From: a virus
Length of the DNA: 64,000 bases
Virus record (IMG/VR): IMGVR_UViG_3300036790_000500
Location: 32,001 to 96,000 of that record
Direction: 5' to 3' (one strand)
In this document: positions 1 through 64,000 of the stretch, piece by piece
Numbering within the stretch: position 1 is the first letter of the stretch
Layout of the letters: the number at the start of each line of letters is the position of its first letter
Made by a program: the position numbers and the translations under genes
The notes under the pieces: model-generated
Seen by the model: the letters and a program-made list of their open reading frames with translations, nothing else
Told to the model about the DNA's origin: nothing
Databases searched by the model: none

Positions 1-1
1 C

Positions 2-706
2 TCGATTGAAACGAACGTCGTGGGAACGGCCAACGTGGCCGAGGCGGCCCGACAGGGTGGTTGTCCGCGCATCGTTTACTCAGCCAGTTCCTCGGCCTAC
101 GGTCGTAAGAACGAGCCACCGATGGTCGAGGACATGCCGACAGACTGTCTCAACCCGTACTCGATGTCGAAGAAGGCGGGCGAGGACGTCATGGACGTCT
201 ATAATCGCCTCTATGGAATCAGCACCGTCAGCCTCCGGTACTTCAACGTTTACGGTCCCCGTCATCAGGAGGAGGGCCGGTACGCCACCGTCATCGCCAT
301 TTTCCGACGGCAGTTGCGAATGGGGCAGATGATGACCGTAGTCGGCGACGGTACCCAGCGCCGGGACTTCACCTTCGTCGGGGACGTGGTCCGGGCCAAC
401 ATGCTCGCCATGATGAACCGAGAGGCGACCGGCGTCTTCAACATCGGAACCGGTACAAACTTTAGCGTGAATGAACTTGCCGCGCTCATCGATGGCGACA
501 AGTACGGGACCAACTGGATGAACAAGGTCGAGTACGTCCCTCCTCGTCTGGGCGAGGCCAGCGTCACGCTGGCAGATAACACCAAGGCCTGGAACGTCCT
601 CGGCTGGAAGCCGCAAGTGTCACTCGAGCAGGGCCTCGATGTCATCGATGTGTATGAGAAGAAGATGGGTGCCGGCTCCAGTCGCATCATCCTGGCGGGG
701 CGCTGA
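2..706 (+). CDS. NAD-dependent nucleotide-sugar epimerase/dehydratase (5'-truncated)
   Basis: Frame open from the window edge (SIETNVVGTANV); SSSAYG, YxxxK (YSMSK), LRYFNVYGP and RDFTFVGD motifs of extended SDRs. Confidence 0.92.
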   Translation, partial: SIETNVVGTANVAEAARQGGCPRIVYSASSSAYGRKNEPPMVEDMPTDCLNPYSMSKKAGEDVMDVYNRLYGISTVSLRYFNVYGPRHQEEGRYATVIAIFRRQLRMGQMMTVVGDGTQRRDFTFVGDVVRANMLAMMNREATGVFNIGTGTNFSVNELAALIDGDKYGTNWMNKVEYVPPRLGEASVTLADNTKAWNVLGWKPQVSLEQGLDVIDVYEKKMGAGSSRIILAGR

Positions 707-3700
707 TGGCGAAGAGGAAACGGCTTCTTTTCACGGGTCCCGTTCTCACAGCCTCAGGCTACGGTGTGCATGCCCGTCAACTCCTGGCCGGTCTGGTGGA
801 ATCGGACCAGTATGACGTCTACGTTGAGAGCCTGAAGTGGGGTGAGACCCCCTTCCTCACCGACCCGAGCCTCGAATGGATTCGACAACTAGTCGCTAAG
901 CAGGCGCCGGCGCAGCCGGACGTGCACGTCCACGTCACCATTCCCAACGAGTTCAAGCGCCGCGCGCCGCTGGAGATTGGCGTCACCGCCGGCATCGAGG
1001 TCGACCGCGTCTCCCCGCAGTGGCTCCTGAAGTGCAACTCCGAGGTCGATGTAGTCGTCGTCCCCAGTGAGCACTCGAGGGTCGCCTTCGGAGTGCAGTA
1101 CCAGGGCTCGAACGGTCAGCAACTCAAACTTGAGAAGCCAATCCTCGTGATTCCTGAGGGAGTGGACACCGCTTGGTTCAAGCCGGCGCGAGCAGAGTCT
1201 GAACTCTTGAATCGAGTCGAAGTGCCGGATAGGAACTTCGTCTTCACGGGACTCGGGTTGGACAAGCCCCAAGGCCGTGACCGAAAGAACGTCACTCGCT
1301 TGATTGAGTACTTCTGCAAGGCCTTCAGCGGAAGCAAGGGCATCGGTCTAATCCTGAAGACCTCCGTCGTCAACGGCTCCTCGCTCGACTATGAAATCTG
1401 TAAGAAGCGAATAAAGGAAATCAAGACGTCGGCTGGGTTTCCTGACGCACCGGTCTTCCTTGTCCATGGACGGGTCTCTGAGACCGAGATGGCCGGGATT
1501 TACAACGACCCTCGGGTGCTCGCCGCGGTTAGCCTGACGCACGGTGAGGGCTACGGACTTCCGTTGATTGAGGCAGCCGCCTGCGACCTCCCTGTCATCG
1601 CGACCGACTGGTCGGGTCACCTAGACTTTCTTACCCACCCCGATGGACGTAAACTCTTCGTTCCTGTGGAATATGACCTGACCGAGGTCTGGCAGGAGTG
1701 TACCTGGGACGGCGTCATCGAGCCGGGAACCCGCTGGGCGGTTGCCCGTGAGGCCGACGCAATCACCAAACTGCAGAAGATGGCGCTCTCCTCCGAGACT
1801 CCCCGTAAGTGGGCCCAGGAACTCGGCCAATCTATTCGTGAGCGCTTGAACCTAAAGGCCACCCAGGACCTCTTCAACGCTGTCGTGGCGCAGGCCTGTC
1901 GGGAAATCGACAGCGCTAGGCCGTCCCAAGACCGGGATGCCTTCGTCGCTGCGCTGCGGTCACAGGTCTCCGCCAGGGGCCTCAGCCTCGTCTATACGAT
2001 GCCCATGTCAGCGGGTGACGTGTTCCTTAGCACCGGTGTCGTGAGTGCCCTCCGACGTCGCCATCCAGGCCACCGGGTCTACTTCGCCACCCAGGGTCGA
2101 TACTTCGACATCATCAAGGACCTAAGGCTTTCAGACGGAACGCTGTTGGTGGATGAGTTGCTGGAGTACCAACCCTGGATGCAGGAGGTAGCGGTCCTCG
2201 AGGACGTCTTCGATGAGGTCTACACCCCGAACCTAGCCGTACAGATGCTTTGGTCGAACTGGGTCCACAAGGGCAATGGTCGACACCTCCTGGACGAGTT
2301 CGCGGTCCAATGCGGGGTGAACGCCCTGGAGCCGGTCCTCCCGGACATGGAGCCAATCGATGTCCTGAGCGTGGGAGACACGTGGGTCGCCGTCCACTCC
2401 GGAGGACAGAAGTCCGCCCGCGGCTACGCCCACTGGCCGGAACTGGTCAAGAACATCAGGTCCGCCGGACTAAAAGTCGTCCAAGTCGGCGCTTCCGATG
2501 ACCTCTCCGTGGGGGAGGTTGACTTAGACGTCCGGGGGAAGACCGACCACCGGCATTTGGGGATTTATCTCTCGAACTGCGCTGCATTCGTGGGAATCGA
2601 CAGTTACCCGATGCACGTTGCCGCGGCCTGTGGGACCAACGTCGTAGCCCTCTTCGGAAGTTCCTACGCGACCACGACCGGCCCGCGCAAGTCCGGGCGA
2701 GGTAAACTCAGGGTCATGGAGACCCCCGACCGGAACGGCTGTGACCGGGCCTGCTACAAGGACGTCTGCAAGGTTGACGCGGGGAATCCCTGCATCAACA
2801 ACATCAAGCCGATATACGTCTATCTCGACCTGATGAAGTCACTCGGTATCACCGACGCACCGTTCTACACGGAGCATCACCCTAGGATTGGCGGCTACAT
2901 TCATTTGATGAACCCGAAGAGGAACGGGTACCCATTCGTTCAAAGCATCAATAGCATGCTTGGGTTCTGTGCGGAGGTCATCGTCGTCGACGGCGGCTCC
3001 ACCGACGGAACCAAGGAGGAACTCGAGGCGATGTCCCTGGCTGACCCGCAACTGAAGGTCATCACCCGTGAGTGGGACCCCGAGGAGCCCGGGATGGACG
3101 GGATGCAGAAGGCCTTCGGTCGAGCCATGGTCTCCCCTGACTGCGAGTTCCTCTGGCAGCAGGACGCCGACGAGGTCGTGCACCCTGACGATTGGCCGAA
3201 GATTGTGCAACTCTGCAAGCGGTTCCCCGCCGACGTGGACGTCATGCACCTCCCCGTGATTGAACTCTGGGGCGACGACCGTCACGTTCGCACCGACCGG
3301 CACAGTTGGAAGTGGCGGCTCTCCCGGAACAACCTCCGGGTGACGCACGGCATCAACACCCAGGCTCGGCAGTTGGACCCCAAGACGGGTCGGGTCTTCT
3401 CGAAGCCCGGCCAATCGGACGGCTGCGAGTACATCGACATCGTGACCGGTAACCACCTGTCGCATCGCGGCTTCTACAACCAGGAACTCGAGCGCCTGCG
3501 ACGGGAGGACCCCGAGGAATACGGTCGACAGATGAATCGGGTCTTCGCGACACTGCCCAGCGTCTGGCACTACAGTTGGGCCGACCTACCGCGGAAGGTG
3601 CGGAACTTTCGAGACTTCTGGAACGCTCAGTGGTCAGTCCTCTACCAACAACCCGTCGAGGCCCGCTTCGCGGACGTGGTGTCGGAGGAGGACGTCCAAC

Positions 3701-3801
3701 GAAAGGCCAAGGAGTTATTGGAGCGCGGCGGGGAGCATAGCCCCGCTCCAACGTTCCTAATTGACCGTGAACCACCTGCAAGCATGAAGGAAAGACAATG
3801 A
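706..3801 (+). CDS. Tri-domain glycosyltransferase (GT4-like + GT9/heptosyltransferase-like + GT2-like)
   Basis: EGYGLPLIEAAAC (GT4); AGDVFLSTGVVSALRRRHP and FVGIDSYPMHVAAA (GT9); VDGGSTDGT and QDADE (GT2). Confidence 0.88.
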   Translation: MAKRKRLLFTGPVLTASGYGVHARQLLAGLVESDQYDVYVESLKWGETPFLTDPSLEWIRQLVAKQAPAQPDVHVHVTIPNEFKRRAPLEIGVTAGIEVDRVSPQWLLKCNSEVDVVVVPSEHSRVAFGVQYQGSNGQQLKLEKPILVIPEGVDTAWFKPARAESELLNRVEVPDRNFVFTGLGLDKPQGRDRKNVTRLIEYFCKAFSGSKGIGLILKTSVVNGSSLDYEICKKRIKEIKTSAGFPDAPVFLVHGRVSETEMAGIYNDPRVLAAVSLTHGEGYGLPLIEAAACDLPVIATDWSGHLDFLTHPDGRKLFVPVEYDLTEVWQECTWDGVIEPGTRWAVAREADAITKLQKMALSSETPRKWAQELGQSIRERLNLKATQDLFNAVVAQACREIDSARPSQDRDAFVAALRSQVSARGLSLVYTMPMSAGDVFLSTGVVSALRRRHPGHRVYFATQGRYFDIIKDLRLSDGTLLVDELLEYQPWMQEVAVLEDVFDEVYTPNLAVQMLWSNWVHKGNGRHLLDEFAVQCGVNALEPVLPDMEPIDVLSVGDTWVAVHSGGQKSARGYAHWPELVKNIRSAGLKVVQVGASDDLSVGEVDLDVRGKTDHRHLGIYLSNCAAFVGIDSYPMHVAAACGTNVVALFGSSYATTTGPRKSGRGKLRVMETPDRNGCDRACYKDVCKVDAGNPCINNIKPIYVYLDLMKSLGITDAPFYTEHHPRIGGYIHLMNPKRNGYPFVQSINSMLGFCAEVIVVDGGSTDGTKEELEAMSLADPQLKVITREWDPEEPGMDGMQKAFGRAMVSPDCEFLWQQDADEVVHPDDWPKIVQLCKRFPADVDVMHLPVIELWGDDRHVRTDRHSWKWRLSRNNLRVTHGINTQARQLDPKTGRVFSKPGQSDGCEYIDIVTGNHLSHRGFYNQELERLRREDPEEYGRQMNRVFATLPSVWHYSWADLPRKVRNFRDFWNAQWSVLYQQPVEARFADVVSEEDVQRKAKELLERGGEHSPAPTFLIDREPPASMKERQ

Positions 3802-4127: not shown

Positions 4128-4892
4128 TTGTCCCTGATTGCAGACATCTTCGTTACGATACGGGGTGGAAGAGAGGACCTCACTGCTCGTTCCCTGCGTT
4201 CACTTCGGGAGAACACGACGCACGGTCAGTATCGCCTTACACTCTGCTTCGACGGGACGTCTCGGGGGGAGCGACACGACCTGGAGACGGCCTTCAATCC
4301 GGCCTATTCCCTCTCCTCAGACTTGAATGAGGGTCTCGGTCCGACCATCAATCGAGCCGTGGCTCACATCAAGTCCGTCAATGATTGGTACTCCGACCCG
4401 AAGGCATCGAACATGGCGCTTGTGGCCCCGTACCTCTGCATGGTCCAGGACGACGTCCAATACTCGAAGGACTGGCTACCCGTCCTTGCGTCACGATTCA
4501 GGGCCTACGGCATGCAGTACAAGTTGGGGTTCGCCTCGGGCATTGAGTGCGTCGAGCATCCGGTTCGTCAGTCCCTGATGCATGACGGAAGCATCGTTCT
4601 CAAGGACTGGCTTCGCGCTACGATGATGCTCTCGACCCGGGAGTACTGGGAGAGCATGATGCCGATTCCCCGTTTCGACCCGGAGACGGGTCAGGTACGG
4701 GCCAAGCCGAACGACGGCATGGGCAGCGGGGTGGATTGGTGGGTCATTCGTGACCACGAGAACTCCGTTTGTAGGACCGGACGCACGAACCTCGTGTTGC
4801 CGGGGCTCTGCCAGCACATGGGATATGCTCAAAGCACATGGTTGAAGCGGGAGATGCCGGAGAGCGACAGCGACAAGGAGAAGATTGGATGA
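4128..4892 (+). CDS. GT2/GT-A fold glycosyltransferase
   Basis: SLRSLRENT..LCFDGTS, NEGLGPTIN, VQDDV (DxD-like), QHMG. Confidence 0.75.
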   Translation: MSLIADIFVTIRGGREDLTARSLRSLRENTTHGQYRLTLCFDGTSRGERHDLETAFNPAYSLSSDLNEGLGPTINRAVAHIKSVNDWYSDPKASNMALVAPYLCMVQDDVQYSKDWLPVLASRFRAYGMQYKLGFASGIECVEHPVRQSLMHDGSIVLKDWLRATMMLSTREYWESMMPIPRFDPETGQVRAKPNDGMGSGVDWWVIRDHENSVCRTGRTNLVLPGLCQHMGYAQSTWLKREMPESDSDKEKIG

Positions 4893-5938
4893 GGAGGCTC
4901 ATCACTGTCTCCTACACCTCTCTGAACGCCTCGGGGGGTGTGCCGGCCTTCAACCGAGCCCTACACTCGGCCTTTCCTGACCGGGAGTGTAAGCACTTCT
5001 GCTGGGAGGACTTTCCATGGCATCCGGAGGTCGACGCCCAGGGAGAGACCGAGTGGGGCAAGGCCCGTCGCTTGAACGAGTACCTGGTCCGCTCCCGGCT
5101 CATCGGCACGGACGACGTCGTGGTGGCCGACGGCTTCTGGGCGGCCGGCCTCGAACATCTCCCGAAGGCGATTAGCGTGGCGCACGGCATCTGGTCGCAC
5201 CTCACCCTTGAGGACGTCCAGGCCGGGAAGCAGCCGGACATGCCGTATCACCATGCGGCCCAAGTGGAGTTCCGTCGACGCTGGTGTGGCCTCGGCAAAC
5301 GCATGACGGCAGTCTCTGATTTCATCGCCAATGAGATGAAGCGGCAGTGGGGGTTCGAGGTCGACCGGGTCATCAACAACGGCGTTGACACGGAACTTTG
5401 GAAGCCGATGACAAATCGCCTCCCTCGGGCACGCCCTCTCGTCCTCCACGGAGTTAACGACGCTTCTAATCTCAACAAGGGCGGTGACCACGTGGTTCTG
5501 CTCGCAAAGGAACTCGATGCAGACGTCCTCTCATTCGATGATGGAGTAGACAGATATCGATTCGCTGGGAAAGATTTCACTAGACCTGAAGCACTCGCTC
5601 AGGCAGACATTTTCGTCCATCCCTCCGGTTACGAGGGAAATTCCATGATGGTGGCTGAGGCCTTGGCTTGCGGTGTCCCTGTCATCGGCTATGACGTCGG
5701 CTACCTCTGGTCCATCAAGGACTGCTACGGCTCCGTCATCGATAGGACCAAGCGGTCACCGGAGTTTACGCTTGCGGCCGCTCGAGACCTGCTCTCTAAC
5801 GAACCGCTGCAGACCAGGCTTCGTGGTCAGGGTCGTGACCTGGCAACCAGAGACCTCAGCATCGTTTGCTTCCGGGACAGTTGGCGGGAGTACATTGATT
5901 TTGTTGAAGGGAGGCGTCGTGATAAGGGTTCGCGTTGA
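4889..5938 (+). CDS. GT4 glycosyltransferase
   Basis: SGGV, AVS, INNGVD, HPSGYEGNSMMVAEALACGVPVI; start set at the ATGA overlap (4889). Confidence 0.9.
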   Translation: MRRLITVSYTSLNASGGVPAFNRALHSAFPDRECKHFCWEDFPWHPEVDAQGETEWGKARRLNEYLVRSRLIGTDDVVVADGFWAAGLEHLPKAISVAHGIWSHLTLEDVQAGKQPDMPYHHAAQVEFRRRWCGLGKRMTAVSDFIANEMKRQWGFEVDRVINNGVDTELWKPMTNRLPRARPLVLHGVNDASNLNKGGDHVVLLAKELDADVLSFDDGVDRYRFAGKDFTRPEALAQADIFVHPSGYEGNSMMVAEALACGVPVIGYDVGYLWSIKDCYGSVIDRTKRSPEFTLAAARDLLSNEPLQTRLRGQGRDLATRDLSIVCFRDSWREYIDFVEGRRRDKGSR

Positions 5939-6596
5939 CGACTATCCTAGGACTTCTAAACACGAGCCCCAGCACACGCGGTCGACCTTTCGGGACTTCC
6001 ACCGTGTTCTGAGTGAGGGCATCGGAGGCAAGCGGTATCTCCTTGGGGTGGTGCCAGGCCAGTGTGACCCAGACGACCTCCTGCTCATACGAAATGAGTT
6101 GGATGTGGTCGTCGGCATGCACGGGACGGACCACGATGAGGAGCGGTTGACTAGGAACGGCGGCAACCAGTTCGAACCCTATTTGACAGCCAATCAAATC
6201 TCTCAGGCTCTTGATGAGCATCGAAAGGCCTTAGGGTCTGCCCTCGGTCAGTGGGCGACCGTCTACATGCCACCGCGAAACGTCATCGACGAACGTACTG
6301 TCACAGCGGCCTTAGCGTGCGGCTTTCACTACTTCACATCCGGACCCGAAACGTCCGCTGACGTTCGAGAACGCCATCCGTTGATGTTCATCCACAGTGA
6401 GAAGCCACACGAGTACGGGCGCTCGGATGAGATGTTCGCGGCTCGCAGCCACCTTACATTGGCCGAGCGGGCCGCCGAAGGCCGCGACATCACGCTGTGT
6501 CTTCACTGGACGTGGGAAACGAACGTGGGACTGGGCCAACTTCGGAGGTTCCTAAATCAGATACCCAAGGCCCTCTTCGCGGACTTCGACGGATGA
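5919..6596 (+). CDS. Polysaccharide deacetylase-like (NodB-fold) protein
   Basis: IRVRVDD, MHGTDH, YMPPRN and LCLH motifs; GTG start after GGAGG. Confidence 0.7.
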   Translation: MIRVRVDDYPRTSKHEPQHTRSTFRDFHRVLSEGIGGKRYLLGVVPGQCDPDDLLLIRNELDVVVGMHGTDHDEERLTRNGGNQFEPYLTANQISQALDEHRKALGSALGQWATVYMPPRNVIDERTVTAALACGFHYFTSGPETSADVRERHPLMFIHSEKPHEYGRSDEMFAARSHLTLAERAAEGRDITLCLHWTWETNVGLGQLRRFLNQIPKALFADFDG

Positions 6597-8104
6597 CCGA
6601 CGTCTGCCTCGTCATACCGCCGTCCATCTTCCTGCTGGACGAGCGGGTCTTCGCATCGCTGGGCATCCTAAAGGTCGCTTCATCGCTCGAGGCCGCCGGT
6701 CATCGGGTCGAAGTCCTCGACCTCTCCGGCATCGCCAACTACGAGGAGGTGGCGGCCCTGCACGCCCGAGGGTCCCGTTCCACGGTCTTCGGAATCACCA
6801 CGACGACACCCCAGATGCCGGCGACCACCAAGGTCCTAGCCGCCATTCGCAAGGTCCGGGCGGACGCTCGGGTCATCATCGGCGGGCCCCATCCCACCCT
6901 CATTGCCGCTGCCCGACGTATGGAGGCAAAGCGGGGGACGGTGGCGCGTGGGCATGCGGCCTTCGACGTCCTGATGGGCATGTTCGACGCAGTGGTCTCA
7001 GGGGACGGGGAGTTGGCCATCCACGAGGCATTGACGACCGATGGCTTCATCGACGCCGATGACCCGAAGGGTCCGCTCTTCCTGACCAATGCAACGCTGG
7101 AGGAGACCGCCTGGCCGGCCCGGCATCTCATTGACCTTGGCTCATATCACTACGACGTGCATGGGTACAACGCGACGAGTCTCATTGCACAGTTGGGATG
7201 CCCATTTAAATGTTCGTTCTGTGGTGGCCGAAACTCCAGCATGCTTCGACGCATCCGTACTCGCTCCACGGAGAGCATCGTCGATGAACTTGAGCACCTA
7301 CATCGAACGTACGGTTATCGCGGCTTCATGTTCTATGACGATGAATTGAACGTCAACAAAGACATAATCCAACTCATGGACGGCATCTCTAACCTGCAGG
7401 AACGTCTAGGAGTGGATTTCCGGCTCCGCGGCTTCGTTAAATCTGAACTCTTCACTCCCGAGCAGGCACAGAGCATGTATCGGGCTGGATTTCGGCAACT
7501 TCTCACGGGTTTCGAGAGCGGTTCGGAACGCATCCTGTTAAACATTAACAAGAAGGCCACCAGGGACGAGAACACTCGTTGCGTTGACACCGCACGGGCC
7601 GCCGGTCTCAAGGTTAAGGCCCTGATGTCGGTCGGACACGCCGGGGAGAGCCTGGAGACCGTCGAGGCCACTCGGGACTGGCTTCTCGAGGTCCAGCCTG
7701 AGGACTTCGATTGCACCGTCATCACGACGTACCCGGGCACCCCCTACTACGACGAGGCCGTGAACACGTCACCCAACGTCTGGACCTACACAGCCAAGAA
7801 CGGGGACCGACTGCACGCCCGGGAGTTGGACTACAACACGACGGCGGACTACTATAAGGGCGCCCCCGACGGCGGCTACGCGGCCTACGTCTTCACCGAC
7901 CACATCACGTCGGACGACCTCGTTCGGGCTCGCGACGACCTTGAGCGTGAGGTCCGGGCGAAGTTGAGCATTCCGTTCAATCAATCTGCAGTATCAGTGA
8001 ACTTTGAGCACTCCATGGGACAGGGCCCGGCCCTCCCACCGAGCATCCTCCGGACATCGGATGGAAGCGTCAAGAGGGTGGTGAGGCTCAGTGTCGTCCG
8101 CTAG
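6593..8104 (+). CDS. B12-binding domain radical SAM enzyme (class B type)
   Basis: N-terminal SLGILKVASSL...IIGGPHPT cobalamin-binding domain; CPFKCSFC (CxxxCxxC); GFESGS; YPGTPYY. Confidence 0.9.
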   Translation: MTDVCLVIPPSIFLLDERVFASLGILKVASSLEAAGHRVEVLDLSGIANYEEVAALHARGSRSTVFGITTTTPQMPATTKVLAAIRKVRADARVIIGGPHPTLIAAARRMEAKRGTVARGHAAFDVLMGMFDAVVSGDGELAIHEALTTDGFIDADDPKGPLFLTNATLEETAWPARHLIDLGSYHYDVHGYNATSLIAQLGCPFKCSFCGGRNSSMLRRIRTRSTESIVDELEHLHRTYGYRGFMFYDDELNVNKDIIQLMDGISNLQERLGVDFRLRGFVKSELFTPEQAQSMYRAGFRQLLTGFESGSERILLNINKKATRDENTRCVDTARAAGLKVKALMSVGHAGESLETVEATRDWLLEVQPEDFDCTVITTYPGTPYYDEAVNTSPNVWTYTAKNGDRLHARELDYNTTADYYKGAPDGGYAAYVFTDHITSDDLVRARDDLEREVRAKLSIPFNQSAVSVNFEHSMGQGPALPPSILRTSDGSVKRVVRLSVVR

Positions 8105-9134
8105 CGGCAAGGTCCTCGTCATCTCCACTCGAGAGGGCAGTGACTTCTCGATGGACCTGGTCTACGCGGGGCTCTGTCGGCGCTTTGGGTTCGACCGGGT
8201 AGTTGATTATCCGGCCCACGCCAAGCACCGCCGGGGTCGGCCCGTCCTAACGGGAGACCCAGAGCGGGACTACGGCCTCGAGCGGGGGTCCCTTTGCTAC
8301 GTCTCCGGCTGCGAGGCCACCCCGGCCCACTCCCTTCAGGAGGTCGCCTCCATGGCGCTCGCCGGCGAGTTCGACTACGTCTTTCTCGACGAGACGGACG
8401 AGGCGTTCGTCCGCTTCATCTCCGTCTTCGCGACCGGTCATCGTCGTACTAGGGTCGTGGTTGTCGCGGGGCATGACCGATTTCGCGGGGACCCGGCCGC
8501 GGTCCAGATGCGCTTCGGCCAACGCCTGGCAGCCATGTTCATCGACGATTGGCTGCCCCAGTACGACGGCCTCCCACGCACGCACCTGATGAACCTCTCC
8601 ATCAACTTCGACCACCTCTGGACGTCGGACCGGCGGGACGAGTTCCTTGCGGACAAGCGGTATGACGTCTGTTTCGTGGGATACAACAGCCATCCGGTTC
8701 GGAAGTTGGTCGTCGACCACGTTCGGATGCGATGGGGTCACCTGAACAACCACATCGTCCTCGAGGAGCGTCCGGACACGTTCTCAGACTTCGTTCGTCA
8801 CGACCGGCTTTTCGAAACCATGGCGCGGTCCCGGGTCTGCCTCAACCTCCCCGGAGCCTCGACCGGCGGCCGGGCCCTTCGCTTCTATGAGACGCCTTAC
8901 GTCGGTTCGTTCATGCTCTCTGCCCGTTTTCCAGCAAAACTCATAGACCCTCCCGAGGAGGACCGCCATTGCGCCTTCTTCGATTCCCTGGCCGAGTTGG
9001 ACCGCAACATCGGTTGGGCCTTGGAAGAGGAGTTGACCCGTGAGATGATGGCCGCTGAGTGCCATGACCTCTTCCTGAGGAAGCATTCGGTTGACGCGCG
9101 AATGGACTACGTCTTCAACATCCTTGAAGGGTGA
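8091..9134 (+). CDS. CgeB-like / GT-B glycosyltransferase
   Basis: YDVCFVG...R, SRVCLN, LRFYE motifs. Confidence 0.75.
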   Translation: MSSASGKVLVISTREGSDFSMDLVYAGLCRRFGFDRVVDYPAHAKHRRGRPVLTGDPERDYGLERGSLCYVSGCEATPAHSLQEVASMALAGEFDYVFLDETDEAFVRFISVFATGHRRTRVVVVAGHDRFRGDPAAVQMRFGQRLAAMFIDDWLPQYDGLPRTHLMNLSINFDHLWTSDRRDEFLADKRYDVCFVGYNSHPVRKLVVDHVRMRWGHLNNHIVLEERPDTFSDFVRHDRLFETMARSRVCLNLPGASTGGRALRFYETPYVGSFMLSARFPAKLIDPPEEDRHCAFFDSLAELDRNIGWALEEELTREMMAAECHDLFLRKHSVDARMDYVFNILEG

Positions 9135-9149
9135 TAGGATGGACCACAC

Positions 9150-10052
9150 GTGAGGGTCCTTTACGCGAAATGCTTCGGGCTGGGAAACGCTGTGATGAGC
9201 GTTCCAGCCATCAAGGCATTGGCCTCTGTCGCTAGGGGTCCGATTGACGTGCTCGTGGGTAGCACCCCCGACGACGGCGGGGCCCTCGAGGTCATGTTAG
9301 AACTGCAGAAGTACTATGACTGCGTCGGTGATGTCTTCGTCGACCGGGCCGGACTTGACGTCGTTTACGACGTAGCGGTGTTAGCCATTCCCTTCGACGG
9401 CCGCTGGTCGAACGGGACCCACTTTCGCGCTCAGTCCGTCGTGGACGCTCGGCCCAGGCCCGGTGACCCGAACGTCCTCGGCCTCAACTCATGGAAGAAA
9501 CATGAGATTGAGTACCAGATGGACAACGCTCGTGGGCTCGGATATAGCGGTCGCACCATGTCATCGTGCTTCACCCTCTCTCCCTGGAAATGTGATGAGG
9601 ACCTGGTCTATGTCGGCCTCGGCTTCAAGCGGGACCCGTCGGGGTTTTGGTCTAAGAAGCACTGGGGTAACGGTCGCTTCATTGGCTTCATGGAGTCTCT
9701 GAAGGAACTCAGGCCCCAGACGCGCTTCATCACCACCTGCGGCTCCGTGGACATGCCGGTGGTGACCGACGTGCATCGTGGTTTCCCGGAACTGAAAGCC
9801 GTCTTCGCTTCTATTAGGATGTCGTTCCCCGACGTGGCTCGGGCCGGCAGTTTCTTCGGAAACGACACAGGCATGGCCCATGTGGCGGCCTCGTTCGGTC
9901 GGCCGACGTACATGATGACGGCCTTTGAGGGCTCGGAGATAAAGAATCCCCCGGCCTGTCCGAGGTCGAAGTGCAACCCGTTTCACACCGTCGCCATGGA
10001 CCCCAAGGCCGTGGCGGCTGACTTCGCTGACTTCGTATGGGGGAAACAGTAG
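9150..10052 (+). CDS. GT9 (heptosyltransferase-like) glycosyltransferase
   Basis: GLGNAVMSVPAIKAL, KHE, KKHW, FFGNDTGMAHVAASFGRP. Confidence 0.85.
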   Translation: MRVLYAKCFGLGNAVMSVPAIKALASVARGPIDVLVGSTPDDGGALEVMLELQKYYDCVGDVFVDRAGLDVVYDVAVLAIPFDGRWSNGTHFRAQSVVDARPRPGDPNVLGLNSWKKHEIEYQMDNARGLGYSGRTMSSCFTLSPWKCDEDLVYVGLGFKRDPSGFWSKKHWGNGRFIGFMESLKELRPQTRFITTCGSVDMPVVTDVHRGFPELKAVFASIRMSFPDVARAGSFFGNDTGMAHVAASFGRPTYMMTAFEGSEIKNPPACPRSKCNPFHTVAMDPKAVAADFADFVWGKQ

Positions 10053-10703
10053 ATGCTCGACCAGTTGGGAAAGATGCTCCTGGCGTTCATAGAGATGGCC
10101 ACGCGTCCGGGGTTGGCGGAGGATACCCACGGAAACCTCTCGTGTCGTGACGTCAATCTCGACGATTGCATCCTCATCAAGCCCTCCGGAATTCCATATA
10201 TCCAGATTGAGCGGCCCGACGTTCGTCGGGTCCGGCTCTCCGACGGGTCGACGTTTCGGGAGGACGGATGCATTCCGTCCGTCGACACCCCTCATCACCT
10301 CAGTATCTATCGACGTTATCCTGACGTCAGTTCAATCTGTCACACTCACTCTCCGTATGCCACGGCCTGGGCCATCACAGGAAACACGATGCACGTTTGC
10401 TGCACGGAGCACGCGGACTACTTCGGACACAGAATACGCTGTCTACCGTTTGCCTCGTTGGACGTCTGGGGGGACCGGGTCTCTCTCTTGCCGGGGGAGC
10501 AGGCTGTCCTATTGGGACAGCACGGGGTCCTGGTCCTCTGTCGGGACCCCGACCCGAGGAAGGCCGTCGCCCTTGCCGCGGCCGTAGAAAGCATTGCCAA
10601 GAAGTATACCCTTGCGTCCTCGCTGTCAGACGTGCTATCAATCATGGACCACGACGAGGTCGAGAAGTGGCATGACCGGTACACGAATAGGTACGGCCAA
10701 TGA
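10053..10703 (+). CDS. Class II aldolase / L-ribulose-5-phosphate 4-epimerase-like protein
   Basis: GNLS, IKPSG, PSVDTPHH, HTHSPYATAWA, HADYFG, C-terminal YGQ typical of the AraD family. Confidence 0.85.
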   Translation: MLDQLGKMLLAFIEMATRPGLAEDTHGNLSCRDVNLDDCILIKPSGIPYIQIERPDVRRVRLSDGSTFREDGCIPSVDTPHHLSIYRRYPDVSSICHTHSPYATAWAITGNTMHVCCTEHADYFGHRIRCLPFASLDVWGDRVSLLPGEQAVLLGQHGVLVLCRDPDPRKAVALAAAVESIAKKYTLASSLSDVLSIMDHDEVEKWHDRYTNRYGQ

Positions 10704-17122: not shown

Positions 17123-17123
17123 G

Positions 17124-51737: not shown

Positions 51738-54700
51738 TGGCCGGTGAAGAGACAGTCTGGCGCAGGCTAACGCGGCTGTTCCGCAGCGGGCCCATCGTCC
51801 GCCATAAGATTGCGAACGGCGAACGCCTCCAGGAGCCGCAGGGCACGGCCCGGGCCTTCAAGAAGGAACTGAGTTCGCTCTACGTCCGAGCCCTGGCCTC
51901 CTACGCCAACTACGAGCGGCTCTCGAGATACTGCGTCACAGGAGACACTCTTGTTGCAGTGAACCTCGAGGAGGGGAACATCCGCATCGATGAACTCGTT
52001 CAAAGAGTTGCAAACGGCGAGGACATTCGGGTCTTTTCGTATGACAACTCACGTGATGAGTTAGTTGCGACTCCCATCGAAAGGGCGGTATGCAACGGTG
52101 AACGGGAAGTCTGTGAAGTTGAACTAGACGATGGAAGCGTCATTCGCTGCACCCCTGACCATCGTTTCATGCTGCGCGACGGAACGTATCGTGAGGCCAA
52201 GGACCTCACACCGAGCACAGCACTCATGCCGTTCCACCGCAAGGAGTGGGGCGGCAAGCGCGGCGAGTACCGGTACGTCTACTCGTACTCCCGCGGATGG
52301 GTTCCAGAGCACGTCATTGTCGCCGAGAGCGTCACCGGTGAGCGGTACGTCCGCGAGGGCGGCATCCACATCCACCACAAGAACTTCAAGCACCGTGACA
52401 ACAGAGCGGACAATCTTCAACCGCTGCCGGCCGCCGACCACCTGGCGCTTCACGCCCGTATCAACAACAAGCGCTTCGAGGACCCAACGGAACGGGAGAA
52501 GCAGGCGGAGCACGCGCGACGTCGATGGGCCACCGGAGGTGACCTCAGGACGTCACAGGAGAATGGCTCCATTGTGTCTGAGCGAGGTCGGGAGGCGCAC
52601 CGTGCCTGGATGGTGGACTTCAATAAGAAGAACAAACCGGGGACAGGCAATGCAGGACGGACCGACCAGGTCGGTCTCGATAACGCCAACGCAGACAAGT
52701 CACTGACCTATCAGACCATCTGTGACGCGTATCGTCCCAACATGGAACTATCGACGCTCTGCTCTCAGGTCGGAGCGTCTCGATACAAGGTCCTCAAGCG
52801 TCTAAAATGGGCCGGCTTCCAATCATTCGACGACTTCGAAGAGAACTACACCAACCACAAAGTCGTCGCGGTGCGCATGACTGGAGCAGTCGAAAAGGTC
52901 TACGACCTCACCGTCGCACCCCATCATAACTTCGCTATCTCATCGCAGAGTGGAAAAAGTTTAATAATAATCCACAACAGCGATTACAACGAAATGGAGT
53001 ATACACCCGAGTTGCACTCGGCCCTTGACATCTACTCCGACGAGGCCACAGTCAAGAACGACGACGGCAACGTAGTGGAGGTCACGTCCAGGAACGCAGA
53101 GATAAAGGAGGTCCTCGAGACCCTGTTCTTCGACATCCTGAACCTCAACTTCAATGCCTGGTCGTGGATGCGGCATTTCTGTAAATTTGGCGATTTCGTC
53201 CTCTTCGTGGACGCTGACGAGGAGCACGGCATCCTCAACCTGGTGCCGATTCCCATCAATGAAATCGAGCGTGAGGAGGGCTTCGACGCCAAGGACCCGC
53301 TGGCGGTCCGCTTCCGCTGGCTCACCCGCGGCAACACTATTCTGGAGAACTGGCAGGTCGTGCACTTCCGTCTCCTCGGAAACGATGCCTACCTGCCATA
53401 CGGGTCGTCCGTCCTCGAGCCGGCCCGTCGCATCTGGCGGCAGTTGATTCTCATCGAGGACGCGATGCTCGTCTACCGCGTCGTTCGCTCCCCCGAGCGG
53501 CGCGTGTTCCACATCGAGGTCGCGAACACGCCACCGGACCAGATTGATGCCTTCATCGAACAGGTGAAGACCCAACTCAAGCGCAACACAATCGTCGATA
53601 ACGAGACCGGCCGCGTCGACCTCCGGTACAATCCGCTGTCTGTGGAGGAGGACTACTTTCTGCCGAAGCGCGGCGACGTTCAGTCCCAGATAGACACCCT
53701 GGCCGGCGGACAGTTTCCAGTACGCCGAGATACCCTTATTCCATTGCTCGATGGACGGCTCATCACCATCGAGCAGTTGGCCGCCGAGTACGACGACGGT
53801 AAGGAGAACTGGGTTCACTCAGTCAAATCCGGGTCGAACGCTTTCGTTCCGGGCAAGGTCGTTTGGTGCGGACGCAATTACGCCTGTGACCGCCTACACC
53901 GAGTTTGGTTGGACGATGGCTCATACGTCGACATGGCTCCTGAGCATCCAATCGTGATGCGTGACGGCAGTAGCAAGCGCGCCGATGAGGTCAAGCCCGG
54001 CGAAAGCGTCATGCCTTTTCGTTGCCGCCGTGAATGGCTCGGAGACCATGACTACGAGATGGTCCAAGACACCGCCGATGACACGTGGAAGTTTATTCAT
54101 CGACAGGTAGCCGGCCCTCATGGCATCTCTGAGGCCCACCTCCGTAGCGGTGAGGGCGCCGTGGCCCTTCACCACGTGGACTTCAATCGCTTCAATAATC
54201 GACCGGATAACCTCCGTTGGATGGGCCGGCTTGAGCACATCAGGTTGCATGGGGAGAACGCCGCTCGAAACCTCCACACGCCTGAGATGGACGCTGAGAA
54301 TGCTCAGCGAATGATTGAGTACAACAGGTCTCCTGAAGGTCGAGCCGCCAGGGCCGCCCGGGATTTCCTCGATGTGACACCGGCCAATCATACCGTGCTC
54401 CGGGTCGAGATACTGGACGGCGTGACCGATGACGTCTTCTGCATGACCGTCGTCGGTCCTGACGGTGAGGACGACCGCCACAACTTCGCTGTCGTGACCA
54501 GGCTTCAAGACGGCTCCATCCCATCCAACTGGGGAGGACTGTTCGTAAAAAACACCGGAGACATTGATGACGTCCGGTACATCCAGTCGAAGATGTTCGC
54601 GGCCATCAAGATTCCTCGGGCGTATCTCGGGTACGAGGACCAGATTGGCTCGAAGTCGACCCTGGCGCAGGAGGACGTGAGATTCGCCAAGACGATTGAG

Positions 54701-55486
54701 CGCATCCAGTCCCTCTTCGTCTCCGAGTTGAACAAGATTGCCATCATTCACCTCTATCTGCTCGGCTATCAGGGCTCGGACCTGACGAACTTCGACATCA
54801 CGCTGGCCTCCCCGTCGACGGTGGCAGAGCAACAGAAGTTGGAGTTGTGGCGGATGAAGCTTGAGGTCGCGGGGATGGCCCAGGAGGGCGTCTTCGACCG
54901 CAACTTCGTGTATCGCAAGATATTCAGTCTAAACGACAAGCAGATTGCGGCCATCAAGGACGGCAAGCGGACCGACAAACTGGAGGACGCCCTCCTGGAG
55001 TCGATTCAGGCGCCGCCGCCCCCCGGCGGTGAGCCCCCTCCGGCCGGCGGTCCTGAGCCCGAGCCGGCCGCTCCGGGAGCGGACGAGTTGCCGAACACCC
55101 TCGGCGGTCCCGCTCCCGGCGAGGGAGGTGGCGGAGGCGGTGAGCCGCCGCCGGTCACCGCCGGTCTCTCTCTCCCCGGCTCCGTGATGGCCGAGGCCAA
55201 GTTCAACCGCGGCTCGACCGGCAACCGGGCCGAGTTGGCCGTCGACAGGGGCCGCAACCTCTTCTCGACCGGTGAGGACCCCCTGAAACTGACCTTCGGG
55301 ACCGAGAAGCAGACCGCGTCCGACCCGTACGACCGCCGAACCCGCAACCGCGGAATCACCCGACCGTTCTCCGAGACGTCCGCGGAACCGGACTTCGATG
55401 AGATGCCCGGCTCGTCCCAGGTGGACGAGGTTGAGGAGATGTTGCAGAAAGTTTCAGAGTGGCTTAACCGCCGAGACGGTCGCTGA
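51737..55486 (+). CDS. Portal protein (T4 gp20-like) precursor with two inteins
   Basis: LIEDAMLVYRVVRSPERRVFHIEV, EEDYFLPKR, TLAGGQ, KIPRAYL; about 621 aa after splicing. Confidence 0.95.
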   Translation: MAGEETVWRRLTRLFRSGPIVRHKIANGERLQEPQGTARAFKKELSSLYVRALASYANYERLSRYCVTGDTLVAVNLEEGNIRIDELVQRVANGEDIRVFSYDNSRDELVATPIERAVCNGEREVCEVELDDGSVIRCTPDHRFMLRDGTYREAKDLTPSTALMPFHRKEWGGKRGEYRYVYSYSRGWVPEHVIVAESVTGERYVREGGIHIHHKNFKHRDNRADNLQPLPAADHLALHARINNKRFEDPTEREKQAEHARRRWATGGDLRTSQENGSIVSERGREAHRAWMVDFNKKNKPGTGNAGRTDQVGLDNANADKSLTYQTICDAYRPNMELSTLCSQVGASRYKVLKRLKWAGFQSFDDFEENYTNHKVVAVRMTGAVEKVYDLTVAPHHNFAISSQSGKSLIIIHNSDYNEMEYTPELHSALDIYSDEATVKNDDGNVVEVTSRNAEIKEVLETLFFDILNLNFNAWSWMRHFCKFGDFVLFVDADEEHGILNLVPIPINEIEREEGFDAKDPLAVRFRWLTRGNTILENWQVVHFRLLGNDAYLPYGSSVLEPARRIWRQLILIEDAMLVYRVVRSPERRVFHIEVANTPPDQIDAFIEQVKTQLKRNTIVDNETGRVDLRYNPLSVEEDYFLPKRGDVQSQIDTLAGGQFPVRRDTLIPLLDGRLITIEQLAAEYDDGKENWVHSVKSGSNAFVPGKVVWCGRNYACDRLHRVWLDDGSYVDMAPEHPIVMRDGSSKRADEVKPGESVMPFRCRREWLGDHDYEMVQDTADDTWKFIHRQVAGPHGISEAHLRSGEGAVALHHVDFNRFNNRPDNLRWMGRLEHIRLHGENAARNLHTPEMDAENAQRMIEYNRSPEGRAARAARDFLDVTPANHTVLRVEILDGVTDDVFCMTVVGPDGEDDRHNFAVVTRLQDGSIPSNWGGLFVKNTGDIDDVRYIQSKMFAAIKIPRAYLGYEDQIGSKSTLAQEDVRFAKTIERIQSLFVSELNKIAIIHLYLLGYQGSDLTNFDITLASPSTVAEQQKLELWRMKLEVAGMAQEGVFDRNFVYRKIFSLNDKQIAAIKDGKRTDKLEDALLESIQAPPPPGGEPPPAGGPEPEPAAPGADELPNTLGGPAPGEGGGGGGEPPPVTAGLSLPGSVMAEAKFNRGSTGNRAELAVDRGRNLFSTGEDPLKLTFGTEKQTASDPYDRRTRNRGITRPFSETSAEPDFDEMPGSSQVDEVEEMLQKVSEWLNRRDGR
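51932..52978 (+). mobile_element. Intein 1 in portal (class 1, HNH homing endonuclease)
   Basis: C1 (CVTGDT), block B TPDHRF, HHKN...DN...NL HNH, block F VYDLTV..HHNF, terminal HN|S. Confidence 0.92.
53717..54553 (+). mobile_element. Intein 2 in portal (Pro-starting, class 3-like, HNH)
   Basis: Interrupts GGQF|TGDIDD; starts PVRRDT; block B APEHPI; HHVDFNRFNN..NL HNH; block F VFCMTV...HNF; terminal KN|T. Confidence 0.85.
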
Positions 55487-61469: not shown

Positions 61470-63221
61470 ATGAGTGAGAATCTGATTAGGGAAATGTCCC
61501 GGGACGTGGTTCAGCAGAACCTCCTTAAGGAGGGGAAGCGAATCCACGCCAAGTGGCAGAAGACGGGCCTCCTCGAGGGCCTCGACGACAAGCGCGGCGC
61601 GATGATTGCCCGCCTCATGGAGAACCAACTCAAGGAGTTCCTCCTCAAGGAGAACTCCACCCAGAGCGACATCATTGGCTTCCAGAACGTGGCCTTTCCC
61701 ATCATCCGGCGCGTGTTCGCCGGTCTGATTGCGAACGAACTCGTCTCGGTCCAGCCGATGAGCCTGCCCTCGGGTCTGCTCTTCTACATGGACTACCGGT
61801 ACGACACGCAGAAGGCCGGTGACCAGGCGGACAACTTCGCCACGGGCGGCTCTATCTTCGGTGACCGCAACTCGCTTCAGGACGCCAAGGGCTCGGGCGG
61901 CCCGTACAACTACTCGCCGTCCTTCTCGCTCCGTGAGCGCGTCTCGACGGCGACCTTCTCGGCCTCGTTCGCAGTGCCGACCATCGTCGACATCGAGTGG
62001 GACCCGGAGTTGTCGGCGTCGATGACGCCGACTCCGGCCGGATTCGCGAAGATGACCGTGACGAACGGCTACGCGGCGCTCGTTGCGTCGGGTGGCCTCT
62101 CGTCGGCGGCCGAACTGAAGATGGCGGTGCCGGTCTCCGGTACCTCGACCTCCTGGGCCTACGTGTCGCCGGGTAACTCCAGCAACACGGACGGCGTGCC
62201 GGTCCAGTTCGCGCAGGCCGCCGGCGTCGGTGGCCTCCACGTCTATCGTCGGTTCACCAAGGTGGCCCCGAACGGCGTCGACCTGACCTTCATCGTCTCA
62301 GGCACTGCCGCTGACGTGAACGGCGCCGCCGCAGGCGGTCCCGCGGGCGCCGCGGCCATCAAACTCAGTTGGCCCATCGCGCCGACCCTCACGGGCGGCA
62401 CCTCGGGCACCCTGACGCTCGATGCGAACGAGTCGGACCTCGGCGGCCCGGCGATGCCGGTCATTCCGCAACTCGACTTCCAGATTCAGTCGGTGGCTGT
62501 CACCGCCAAGAGCCGTAAACTCAAGGCGCAGTGGACTCCGGAACTGGCTCAGGACCTCGCTGCGTACCAGAACCTGGACGCTGAAGTTGAGTTGACCCAG
62601 GTCCTCTCGGAGCAGATTGCTCTCGAGATTGACCGTGAAATCCTCGCGGAACTTCTGTTCCGGGCGACGGGCGCGAACTACTACTGGTCGCGCGCTCCGG
62701 GCAGGTTCCTGGACAAGACGACGGGCAGCCAGGTCACGGGCGCGACCTTCACCGGTACGGTCCGTGAGTGGTACGAGACCCTAATCGAGTGCATCATCGA
62801 CGTTGGCAACCAGATTCAGCGGAAGACGCTCCGCGGAGCCGCGAACTTCCTCGTGACGTCCCCGGACGTCTCGACGATTCTCGAGGCCTCGGTGCTCTAC
62901 AAGCCGATTTACGACGCCACGGACACGATGCAGACCACGATGGGAATCGGTACCGAGAAGATTGGTACCATGTCGCAGCGGTACACGGTCTACAAGGACC
63001 CGTACTTCCCCCGCAACAAGATTCTCATCGGGTACAAGGGCTCGAGTTTCCTCGAGACGGGCTTCGTCTACGCCCCGTACGTGCCGCTCATCGTGACTCC
63101 GGTCATCTACAAGTACGATGACCTTACTCCGACGAAGGGCGTCATGACGAGGTACGCGAAGCAGTTGGTCAGGAGTGACTTCTACGGTACCCTTACCGTC
63201 CAAGACATGAACTACCCGTGA
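61470..63221 (+). CDS. Major capsid protein (T4 gp23-like)
   Basis: KW.KTGLLEGL, VSVQPMSLPSGLLFY, AKSRKLKAQWTPELAQDL, EIDREI, YAPYVPL, GVMTRY. Confidence 0.97.
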   Translation: MSENLIREMSRDVVQQNLLKEGKRIHAKWQKTGLLEGLDDKRGAMIARLMENQLKEFLLKENSTQSDIIGFQNVAFPIIRRVFAGLIANELVSVQPMSLPSGLLFYMDYRYDTQKAGDQADNFATGGSIFGDRNSLQDAKGSGGPYNYSPSFSLRERVSTATFSASFAVPTIVDIEWDPELSASMTPTPAGFAKMTVTNGYAALVASGGLSSAAELKMAVPVSGTSTSWAYVSPGNSSNTDGVPVQFAQAAGVGGLHVYRRFTKVAPNGVDLTFIVSGTAADVNGAAAGGPAGAAAIKLSWPIAPTLTGGTSGTLTLDANESDLGGPAMPVIPQLDFQIQSVAVTAKSRKLKAQWTPELAQDLAAYQNLDAEVELTQVLSEQIALEIDREILAELLFRATGANYYWSRAPGRFLDKTTGSQVTGATFTGTVREWYETLIECIIDVGNQIQRKTLRGAANFLVTSPDVSTILEASVLYKPIYDATDTMQTTMGIGTEKIGTMSQRYTVYKDPYFPRNKILIGYKGSSFLETGFVYAPYVPLIVTPVIYKYDDLTPTKGVMTRYAKQLVRSDFYGTLTVQDMNYP

Positions 63222-63360: not shown

Positions 63361-63459
63361 CCATTGCTCTCTCTCTCTAACAGTAGCATACTGCATCTTT
63401 ACAGAGTGAAGTGACCTGTCCCGAGCGAAGGCCTTCGGTGCCGGTCTCGGGGTATCAAC

Positions 63460-63606
63460 TTGCTCTCCCAAACCACTCAATTCGTTCATCTCCTGGTCAC
63501 CGTCGTGACCCTCTGGGTGGTGGTCCGTCGTGGCCAGGCCCCGTCCCTCGACGCCACGAGCGTCCGCCGCTGTGAGCGCTGCCGAGGAGCCCTTCGATGC
63601 CGATGA
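63460..63606 (+). CDS. Possible small membrane protein (48 aa)
   Basis: TTG start after GGGGT; hydrophobic LLVTVVTLWVVV; CERC; TGA overlaps the next ATG. Confidence 0.35.
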   Translation: MLSQTTQFVHLLVTVVTLWVVVRRGQAPSLDATSVRRCERCRGALRCR

Positions 63607-64000
63607 GCACCCCGTCCCCGACCACCGTGACGCTGCTCTCGGGCAGCACCACCGAAACCACCTCGGGTGGCACGCCCAACGGTAGGTCCAACCCGACCTG
63701 GGTGACCGGCTCGGTTTACGTCCTGAACCAAACGGCCGGCGGCGCGGCCTCCAACGTCGTCGCCAACAGCGGCTCCGTCGTGGGCCTGCTCATGGGCGGC
63801 CAACCGGTCTCGACCGGCAATCCGGTCGTCGTCACTGGCAGCGTCTACGTCATCAATCCATCGGGCGGCGGCTCCGGCGGCAACATTACGTCACAGAGCG
63901 GAAGCGTCACCGGCCTGCTCATGGGTGGCCAACCGGTGGCGGGCGCCAATCCCCTCTGGGTGACCGGCTCCGTGGGCCTTACCAACTCACCGGCCTCCAC
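63603..64000 (+). CDS. Repeat-rich virion/decoration-like protein (3'-truncated)
   Basis: Open to the window end; SGSVxGLLMGGQPV...NP.(W/V)VTGSV repeats; start may be 63597. Confidence 0.7.
   Translation, partial: MSTPSPTTVTLLSGSTTETTSGGTPNGRSNPTWVTGSVYVLNQTAGGAASNVVANSGSVVGLLMGGQPVSTGNPVVVTGSVYVINPSGGGSGGNITSQSGSVTGLLMGGQPVAGANPLWVTGSVGLTNSPAS

Follow-up and report, generated by a model that had tools for sequence, protein, structure and literature searches.

An order-specific [S/T]-G-S tripeptide in outer tail proteins and a virus-specific glycosyltransferase pair: possible virion O-glycosylation in a T4-related phage lineage

The stretch analyzed here, referred to as the window, comprises the 64,000 bases at positions 32001-96000 of the IMG/VR virus record IMGVR_UViG_3300036790_000500. 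Its two features of interest are a locus rich in glycosyltransferase (GT) genes and a Ser/Thr-Gly-Ser tripeptide, [S/T]-G-S, that recurs in proteins encoded by the baseplate and fiber gene blocks. The complete record (107,053 bases, 61% GC, completeness estimated at 52%) belongs to an uncultured T4-related phage, called G000 in genome comparisons, and the broad lineage of this phage includes Rhodothermus phage RM378, Flavobacterium phage immuto, and Microcystis phage Mel-JY01. All genes in the window lie on the + strand, as do the two genes discussed below that extend past its ends; the GC content of the window is ~0.60, and it carries no tRNAs. Coordinates refer to the window unless "genome" is stated. 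PHROGs and Pfam searches found a T4-related gene set with homologs of the gp55-like sigma factor, gp25, gp6, gp17, gp20, gp21, gp23, and gp18 (the sheath, located beyond the window), as well as a RuvC-like resolvase, a primase, a fused SbcD-SbcC, and a prohead protease. The large terminase (50058-51737) is 28 to 37% identical to the terminases of T4-like phages, and by this protein the closest cultured phages are Mel-JY01, immuto, and RM378 (32 to 37% identity). A megablast search of the DNA against the phage collection gave no match.

The sugar locus spans positions -1906 to 18080 (genome 30094-50080), ~20 kb, and holds nine GT domains according to Pfam, together with sugar-nucleotide enzymes and two methylases. 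Its position is immediately 5' of a gp55-like late sigma factor gene (18756-19430; phrog_234, E 2.8e-6; 77% identity in the relative G001) and of the baseplate genes, on the same strand, which is the arrangement of GT cluster, sugar supply, and tail genes described in the original prediction, made from the sequence alone. The locus begins just 5' of the window with a GT4 of 443 amino acids (aa) (genome 30094-31425), followed by a GroES/Cpn10-like gene, analogous to T4 gp31 (genome 31435-31728), and by a short-chain dehydrogenase/reductase (SDR) sugar epimerase/dehydratase of 325 aa. The SDR gene begins 271 bases before the window, and its 3' part occupies positions 1-706 (Pfam GDP_Man_Dehyd and Epimerase, E 1e-60 on the full open reading frame [ORF]); its best NCBIfam matches are GalE, dTDP-glucose dehydratase, and adenosine diphosphate (ADP)-heptose epimerase, all below the cutoff. 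The next gene encodes a triple glycosyltransferase of 1031 aa (706-3801), in which Pfam recognizes a GT-B/GT1 domain (aa 4-344), a GT9 domain in the middle (42.7 bits, cutoff 22), and a C-terminal GT2 domain. A weak GT2-like gene (4128-4892) and a GT4 gene (4838-5938), both assigned by Pfam, have orthologs only in G001 and G003. They are followed at 5673-8104 by a polysaccharide-deacetylase-like gene with a weak Pfam match and by a B12-binding radical S-adenosylmethionine (SAM) enzyme (6497-8104). The best NCBIfam matches of the latter are the PhpK, HpnJ, and HpnR families, below the cutoff, and it is probably a methylase. It is 50 to 60% identical to genes found at other genomic positions in G003 and G010, and these differing positions give it the character of a mobile accessory gene.

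The 3' half of the locus combines further GTs with genes for sugar supply. Pfam assigns a GT-B glycosyltransferase of the Glyco_trans_1_2 family at 8091-9134 and another at 13054-13977, while the protein encoded at 9150-10052 is GT9-like at 16 bits, below the cutoff; the latter assignment stands because the G003 ortholog scores 47 bits to PF01075, and a phmmer search with this protein against PDB sequences found no match. A sugar-phosphate module at 10053-13050 (Pfam and NCBIfam) contains an AraD-like epimerase/aldolase, RpiB, a PfkB kinase, a transaldolase of the fructose-6-phosphate aldolase (FSA)/TalC type, and a cupin. The module is kept in G001 and, except for the cupin, is absent from G003 and more distant relatives. 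Within 13054-18080, Pfam also identifies a SAM methyltransferase, a conserved 356-aa protein, a nucleoside diphosphate (NDP)-sugar dehydrogenase, an HldC-like nucleotidyltransferase (rfaE domain II, 106.6 bits, cutoff 181.5 in NCBIfam), and an HldA-like kinase (rfaE domain I, 111 bits, cutoff 345). A second HldA-like kinase (11140-12048) is weak, at 49 bits. When the sugar-supply enzymes were scanned against the curated NCBIfam cutoffs, RpiB alone passed. The T4 late promoter (TATAAATA), sought in order to time the sugar locus, has no occurrence in this genome, and no obvious common motif was seen in the intergenic regions.

The tripeptide was quantified by counting [ST][GA]S in each protein and comparing the count with 500 shuffles of the same protein. 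Seven tail, baseplate, or fiber proteins are motif rich, with z values of 3 to 10, and from the gene blocks in which they are encoded they are taken as likely peripheral virion proteins. In the baseplate block, these are a 453-aa protein (23324-24685; 9 sites versus 1.2 expected, z 7) and a 974-aa baseplate or fiber protein (24691-27615; 20 versus 3.1, z 9.9), followed by a 249-aa fiber protein (27649-28398; 5 versus 1.4) and by two proteins of 505 aa (28409-29926; 9 versus 2.5) and 758 aa (30028-32304; 12 versus 3.0) that have no match in Pfam or PHROGs. Farther downstream are a 627-aa protein with a LamG/concanavalin A-like domain (41321-43204; 16 versus 2.2, z 9.3; Pfam Laminin_G_3, E 1e-8) and a repeat-fiber protein of 518 aa, the most motif dense of all (63597 to genome 97153; 17 versus 3.0, z 8.5). 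Two long frames overlap on the + strand at 28409-29926 and 28474-30018; the former is considered the gene because its GC content at third codon positions is 0.91, and the latter a high-GC shadow ORF.

Taken together, SGS and TGS occur 69 times in these seven proteins against 9.7 expected, an excess of ~7-fold. In an unbiased ranking of tripeptides, they are the top common ones (SGS, 39 versus 5.3 expected; TGS, 30 versus 4.4), and the same ranking in other structural proteins and in enzymes yielded nothing comparable. The order of the residues matters, since SSG occurs 6 times and GSS 3 times, each with the same expectation of 5.3 as SGS, and GTS occurs twice. By variant, the enrichment is ~7-fold for [ST]-G-S, ~3-fold for [ST]-A-S, and ~2.5-fold for [ST]-G-T, the third residue being the best-kept Ser. 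Amino acid composition as the cause was ruled out by the per-protein shuffles and the permutation controls. A single repeat family as the cause was also rejected, as the excess persists after removal of the repeat-fiber family (26 versus 3.9 and 21 versus 2.9) and few of the motif-rich proteins are related to one another. By BLAST, they represent at least five families without detectable mutual similarity; the fiber protein at 27649-28398 and the ORF starting at 63597 are paralogs.

Not every virion protein carries the excess. The gp25-like (21097-21483) and gp6-like (21492-23327) baseplate wedge proteins, identified by Pfam and PHROGs, are barely enriched, with 1 and 4 sites, and the portal (51737-55486, 1249 aa) and large terminase show no enrichment in the shuffle test. 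The gp23-like major capsid protein (61470-63221; phrog_138, E 5e-74) has 3 sites versus 1.2 expected, which is not an enrichment. Three large structural proteins rich in Ser, Thr, and Ala (906, 612, and 603 aa; 32958-39326) have 4, 1, and 4 sites against 3.4, 2.5, and 2.0 expected, and their G001 orthologs likewise lack an excess. The original prediction that baseplate, tail, and capsid proteins are loaded with the motif thus holds for the seven outer proteins and fails for the major capsid protein and the Ser-rich trio. Its companion claim, that the enzymes checked lack [S/T]GS, did not hold either: enzymes carry the motif at expectation, without depletion.

Comparison with relatives indicates what is being conserved. 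G001 is a 52-kb IMG/VR contig of 36% GC that is syntenic with G000 from position 4128 to the portal, at 40 to 82% protein identity. The GC gap of 25 points (0.61 versus 0.36) is unusually large for related phages. The orthologs that are enriched in the window are enriched in G001, and the same ones are unenriched. Site positions are kept at 8 of 9 sites in the protein encoded at 23324-24685, at 10 of the 14 aligned sites of 24691-27615, and at 9 of 16 in 41321-43204, and where sites change between the two phages they remain within [ST]-[GAS]-[ST]. A DNA-level or GC artifact was rejected, since the 36%-GC contig keeps the motif in the same orthologs and mostly at the same sites. Homologs of three of the families in ~70 more distant IMG/VR loci (23 to 35% identity, GC 0.26 to 0.46) are mostly enriched as well, with z values of 3 to 12, and so are nearly all of the 37 environmental homologs of the repeat-fiber family. 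When 25 sequences of the 453-aa family are aligned, the close and the distant clade have their sites at different positions, although both are enriched; density thus appears to be maintained as positions shift, subject to the uncertainty of an alignment at 25% identity. Overall, the motif is under selection at the level of the protein.

The motif-bearing architectures include LamG, a chain of immunoglobulin (Ig)/macroglobulin-like and carbohydrate-binding module (CBM)-like beta-sandwiches, and a fiber with repeats of ~21 aa. The AlphaFold2 (AF2) model of the 453-aa protein (23324-24685; predicted local distance difference test score [pLDDT] 79) contains several beta-sandwich domains, for which Foldseek retrieved Ig/macroglobulin-like and CBM-like folds. 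In the 974-aa protein (24691-27615), a LamG-like region delimited by eye at aa 140-350 has 14 sites. The fiber protein at 27649-28398 contains V-[ST]-G-S-V...GG...NP..V repeats behind a conserved N-terminal anchor. In this fiber family (27649-28398 and the ORF starting at 63597), the anchor reads MADNT.LN.G.GGDTLRTEDVGGGVKVPVSKI, the ~21-aa repeats vary in copy number, and a beta domain forms the C terminus.

As an alternative, the tripeptide may be purely structural, a tight-turn or strand-cap element in which a Ser/Thr cap precedes a type II' Gly-Ser turn and which was inherited and spread by module shuffling among the beta-rich baseplate and fiber proteins of the lineage; the glycan locus would then have an unrelated role, and the co-occurrence would reflect shared ancestry only. 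Of the nine sites in the AF2 model, one, S307-G308-S309, forms a two-residue hairpin, and the others lie in loops, at a helix end, or where strands begin or end; the tripeptide of the fiber family is part of a regular repeat; and flanks are hydrophobic at ~52% of the sites versus 33% of the background. A weaker excess in cyanophage fibers and the restriction of motif-positive genomes to a single clade, both detailed below, fit this explanation as well. However, a preference for turns would also raise G-N, G-D, and G-T, and only G-S is strongly enriched. The beta-rich baseplate and fiber proteins of T4 hold 0 or 1 sites each, this phage itself has three large Ser-rich structural proteins without an excess, the motif recurs in families of different folds that share no detectable sequence similarity, and its positions turn over at a maintained density. 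We rank the structural tag close behind virion glycosylation, as a plausible explanation that still falls short of being probable.

Within the sugar locus, a tblastn comparison of the whole locus with the relatives identified only two universal parts, the 443-aa GT4 and the N-terminal GT-B domain of the triple glycosyltransferase. The GT4 is found at 36 to 56% identity in G003, G006, G007, G009, and G010 and at 27 to 36% in RM378, immuto, and Mel-JY01. The GT-B domain lies directly 3' of the GT4 in all of these except RM378, where tblastn recovered the GT4 and not the GT-B half. In G000 the GT-B is fused (aa 4-344 of 706-3801), and the Cpn10 and epimerase genes lie between it and the GT4. Both halves match the catalytic Glycos_transf_1 region, and the nearest ESM Atlas clusters of the pair are 90 to 100% viral. 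Among solved structures, the relatives of the GT4 are chlorovirus B736L (NY-2A; PDB 3oy2, E 3e-9), TreT, MshA, and BshA. The locus is laid out as a conserved GT4/GT-B core with a variable periphery of GTs, methylases, and sugar-nucleotide enzymes.

The pair has a third companion. In 79 of 80 IMG/VR loci, the GT4 is followed by the GT-B, and in 71 of the 80 a PD-(D/E)XK nuclease is encoded within 4 kb 5' of the GT4; the nuclease of G000 lies at genome 28511-29458 (Pfam PDDEXK_1, E 1e-15), and the nuclease/GT4/GT-B module is annotated in immuto (gp183, gp181, and gp180) and in Mel-JY01. Such company raises the question of whether the pair and its nuclease glycosylate phage DNA, as in T-even and other phages with hypermodified DNA. 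The GT4 exceeds the Pfam "GT4-conflict" threshold (36 bits versus 26), and in RM378 the pair is located among DNA metabolism genes. On the other hand, a hydroxymethylase of the thymidylate synthase family (PF00303) was not found in the complete genomes of RM378, Mel-JY01, and G007, nor in G009, G006, and the half-complete G000, and a Tet/JBP search (PF12851), which had no positive control, gave no match. The strong restriction-site avoidance that had been reported for this DNA is also real, with 0 GATC against 368 expected and 13 AGCT against 256 in the whole 107-kb record, and it is not seen in G001. This avoidance implies that the DNA of G000 is exposed to restriction enzymes. DNA is an unlikely glycan acceptor, and we regard DNA glycosylation as the most improbable of the explanations considered here.

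To relate the pair to the motif, the genome-wide ratio of observed to expected [ST]GS was used as a co-occurrence score in nine genomes with the GT4 and five controls that lack the pair. Carriers have ratios of 3.94 (G000), 2.68 (RM378), 2.65 (G003), 2.48 (immuto), 2.43 (Mel-JY01), 2.21 (G010), 2.05 (G009), 1.95 (G006), and 1.72 (G007), and noncarriers have ratios of 0.69 (T4), 0.95 (phiM9), 1.22 (G015), 1.33 (P-SSM2, a GT-rich cyanophage), and 1.72 (S-RSM4). The separation between the two groups is nearly clean. A generic trait of T4-like tail proteins was ruled out for T4, phiM9, and G015; a weak excess in cyanophage fibers remains. A search of 17 further records yielded no in-lineage genome that lacks the GT4; the ten records with no GT4 match are fragments (19 to 58% complete) or, for G015, a distant genome. 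Relatives without any GT were not found either, as each has GT1 and GT2 matches, and the IMG/VR scan for an independent lineage with the pair gave only matches of ~40% identity from the same group. The Microcystis phage Mae-JY09, a 39-kb siphovirus, carries a single GT4-type gene (9787-10971), a weak homolog, inside its structural module, between the capsid genes and the head-tail connector genes; its motif counts are too small to judge.

The same comparisons bear on the enzymology first proposed, in which a GT9 of the Aah/TibC type would use phage-made ADP-heptose to prime the Ser of [S/T]-[G/A]-S and the other GTs would extend it. The locus does encode one solid GT9 domain and one GT9-like protein recognized by orthology, HldC-like and HldA-like genes with an SDR epimerase, and a transaldolase that could supply sedoheptulose-7-phosphate. 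However, G006, G007, G009, RM378, immuto, and Mel-JY01 keep the motif excess without a tblastn match to the GT9 or Hld-type genes of the locus, contrary to the expectation that motif enrichment would accompany these genes across relatives, and a PF01075 scan of five genomes matched only G000 and G003, leaving G006, G007, and G009 empty. By tblastn, homologs of the pentose-phosphate and Hld-like genes are confined to G001, in part to G003 and G010, and, for the cupin alone, to G007. The GT9 domain of 706-3801 is nearest to the lipopolysaccharide (LPS) heptosyltransferase WaaF (1psw, E 0.027; also 3tov) in a phmmer search against PDB sequences, in which no TibC chain was matched. Neither GmhA nor GmhB appears among the Pfam hits in the locus, and the Hld-type matches are far below the equivalog cutoffs. 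TibC modifies Ser in N-S-G-G and T-S-A-A contexts (PMC4358343), whereas the best-kept Ser here is the third residue. The likeness to TibC and Aah, whose acceptors are TibA and AIDA-I, is that of a cytoplasmic enzyme, many Ser residues in a beta-rich repeat protein, a GT9-like fold, and small residues after Ser; the differences are the missing TibC sequence match, a GT9 that is not linked to the motif, an [S/T]-G-S rather than S-G-G/S-A-A sequence, and an ADP-heptose pathway that appears incomplete. Heptose priming by GT9 is thus very unlikely, and this part of the original prediction is not supported.

A further alternative is that the locus remodels a glycan of the host envelope (LPS, O-antigen, or capsule) during infection, possibly to block superinfection or to keep progeny from adhering to debris. 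Its multidomain GTs (GT-B, GT9, and GT2), deacetylase, and methylases resemble O-antigen or capsule loci, its GT9 domain is nearest to LPS heptosyltransferase II, and its peripheral genes vary among relatives as those of surface-glycan loci do. This reading has been proposed for the GT/LPS clusters of P-SSM2, S-SCSM1, and S-SCSM2R, aquatic T4-like phages that encode epimerases and as many as 13 GTs (PMC12801897). A transaldolase, a cupin, and a nucleotidyltransferase are common to the cyanophage clusters and this locus; in contrast, the cyanophages lack the GT4/GT-B pair and have a weak [ST]GS excess. Against an envelope target, no flippase, polymerase, ligase, or polyprenyl-phosphate transferase is among the Pfam hits, the motif is left unexplained, and the virus-specific core pair is shared by phages of Rhodothermus, Flavobacterium, and Microcystis despite the differing envelopes of these hosts. 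Since the hosts of RM378, immuto, and Mel-JY01 belong to three phyla (Rhodothermota, Bacteroidota, and Cyanobacteria), a host-specific envelope acceptor is unlikely, and the acceptor is probably a phage component; the candidates left for the pair are phage proteins or a universal small molecule. Overall, we consider envelope remodeling unlikely, albeit less so than the heptose or DNA alternatives.

The best single reading of these observations, which we put forward tentatively, is that virion proteins are O-glycosylated at [S/T]-G-S, with the conserved GT pair as the priming enzymes and the variable locus providing the extension. Some support for it comes from a motif that is order specific, is spread over at least five families, withstands a large shift in GC content, shows no excess in T4, and co-occurs with a GT pair known from viruses only, and from the position of the locus next to the late sigma and baseplate genes. 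In the scheme that we suggest from the gene content, motif statistics, conservation, and co-occurrence, the acceptor would be the Ser of the tag in outer tail proteins, to which the core pair would add the first sugar in the cytoplasm of the infected cell. The variable GTs and methylases would then extend this sugar into a strain-specific glycan coat, and the sugar-phosphate, kinase, and nucleotidyltransferase genes would supply an unusual activated sugar. In its broadest form, the proposal would be that a virus-specific GT-B pair O-glycosylates the Ser of [S/T]-G-S in outer tail, baseplate, and fiber proteins across a T4-related lineage with hosts in at least three phyla, accessory genes diversifying the product, and that this is the first sequon-directed virion glycosylation system in phages of Gram-negative bacteria, one whose acceptor motif is defined and can be searched for; this wider claim is possible, and we hold it with somewhat less assurance. 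The general idea that the phage glycosylates a Ser motif in its outer virion proteins has gained some ground, even as the GT9/heptose mechanism is not supported.

It is important to consider that several observations weigh against virion glycosylation. The major capsid protein is not enriched, the three Ser-rich structural proteins are a counterexample, and the enzymes are not depleted of the motif. The G-S pair naturally forms a type II' beta-turn, the AF2 model shows a classic two-residue hairpin at one of its nine sites, and single fiber proteins of cyanophages that lack the pair show a 2- to 4-fold excess. All pair-bearing genomes form one lineage, so that the correlation between pair and motif amounts to one evolutionary event. 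The solved-structure relatives of the GT4 act on small molecules (TreT, MshA, and BshA) or have an unknown acceptor (B736L), and the frequent presence of the nuclease beside the pair could hint at a DNA-related role. In addition, literature searches found no published glycosylation chemistry for RM378 or Mel-JY01.

Among known systems, the proposed one is comparable in part to that of the mycobacteriophages Che8, Corndog, and Myrna, in which mass spectrometry is reported to have located virion glycans on the C termini of capsid and tail-tube subunits (Freeman et al. 2023, as cited in PMC12619734). In both cases, the proposal is that phage-encoded cytoplasmic GTs glycosylate structural proteins of the phage itself, and the GT genes vary among relatives. 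The present case differs by its internal tripeptides in baseplate and fiber proteins, by hosts that are not actinobacteria, and by being known from sequence alone. C-terminal capsid and tail-tube sites were not found here, given an unenriched major capsid protein and a tail-tube gene that was not identified.

Chloroviruses provide the best solved-structure match of the conserved GT4, B736L, itself a GT4. These viruses build methylated capsid glycans with their own enzymes at noncanonical sites. The similarity to B736L is nevertheless limited to the nucleotide-sugar-binding half, and in chloroviruses, which are eukaryotic viruses, the glycans are N-linked to the major capsid protein. In Gram-positive cocci, the GT-B pair GtfA/GtfB acts in the cytoplasm to prime Ser within short Ser-x-Ser repeats of serine-rich repeat adhesins, after which additional GTs extend the product. 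In contrast to that system, sequence similarity to GtfA (4pqg) is negligible here (E 0.71), and the acceptors are not low-complexity Ser repeats.

Should the tag prove to be a glycosylation site, the known range of virion glycosylation would widen from a few actinobacteriophages to an aquatic T4-like group that is large and abundant, and a sequence motif would predict which virion surfaces are coated. The consequences would concern receptor recognition, escape from recognition by hosts or grazers, the stability of the phage, and the GT clusters of large marine phages, which lack an explanation. A purely structural tag would still be a striking lineage-specific signature marking outer tail proteins in metagenomic phages that are otherwise unannotatable. 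Either way, the heptose/TibC reading can be dropped. With three members of the lineage in culture (RM378, immuto, and Mel-JY01), the question of glycosylation is directly testable.

Two other genes of the window have an unusual organization. The SbcD-like and SbcC-like nuclease subunits, analogous to gp47 and gp46, are fused in one ORF of 1040 aa (44805-47927), as they are in G001. The portal contains two insertions with HNH endonuclease matches, at about aa 67-414 and aa 661-923, and the G001 ortholog aligns contiguously to aa 3-66, 415-660, and 924-1091; from these alignments, the two insertions are probably inteins.

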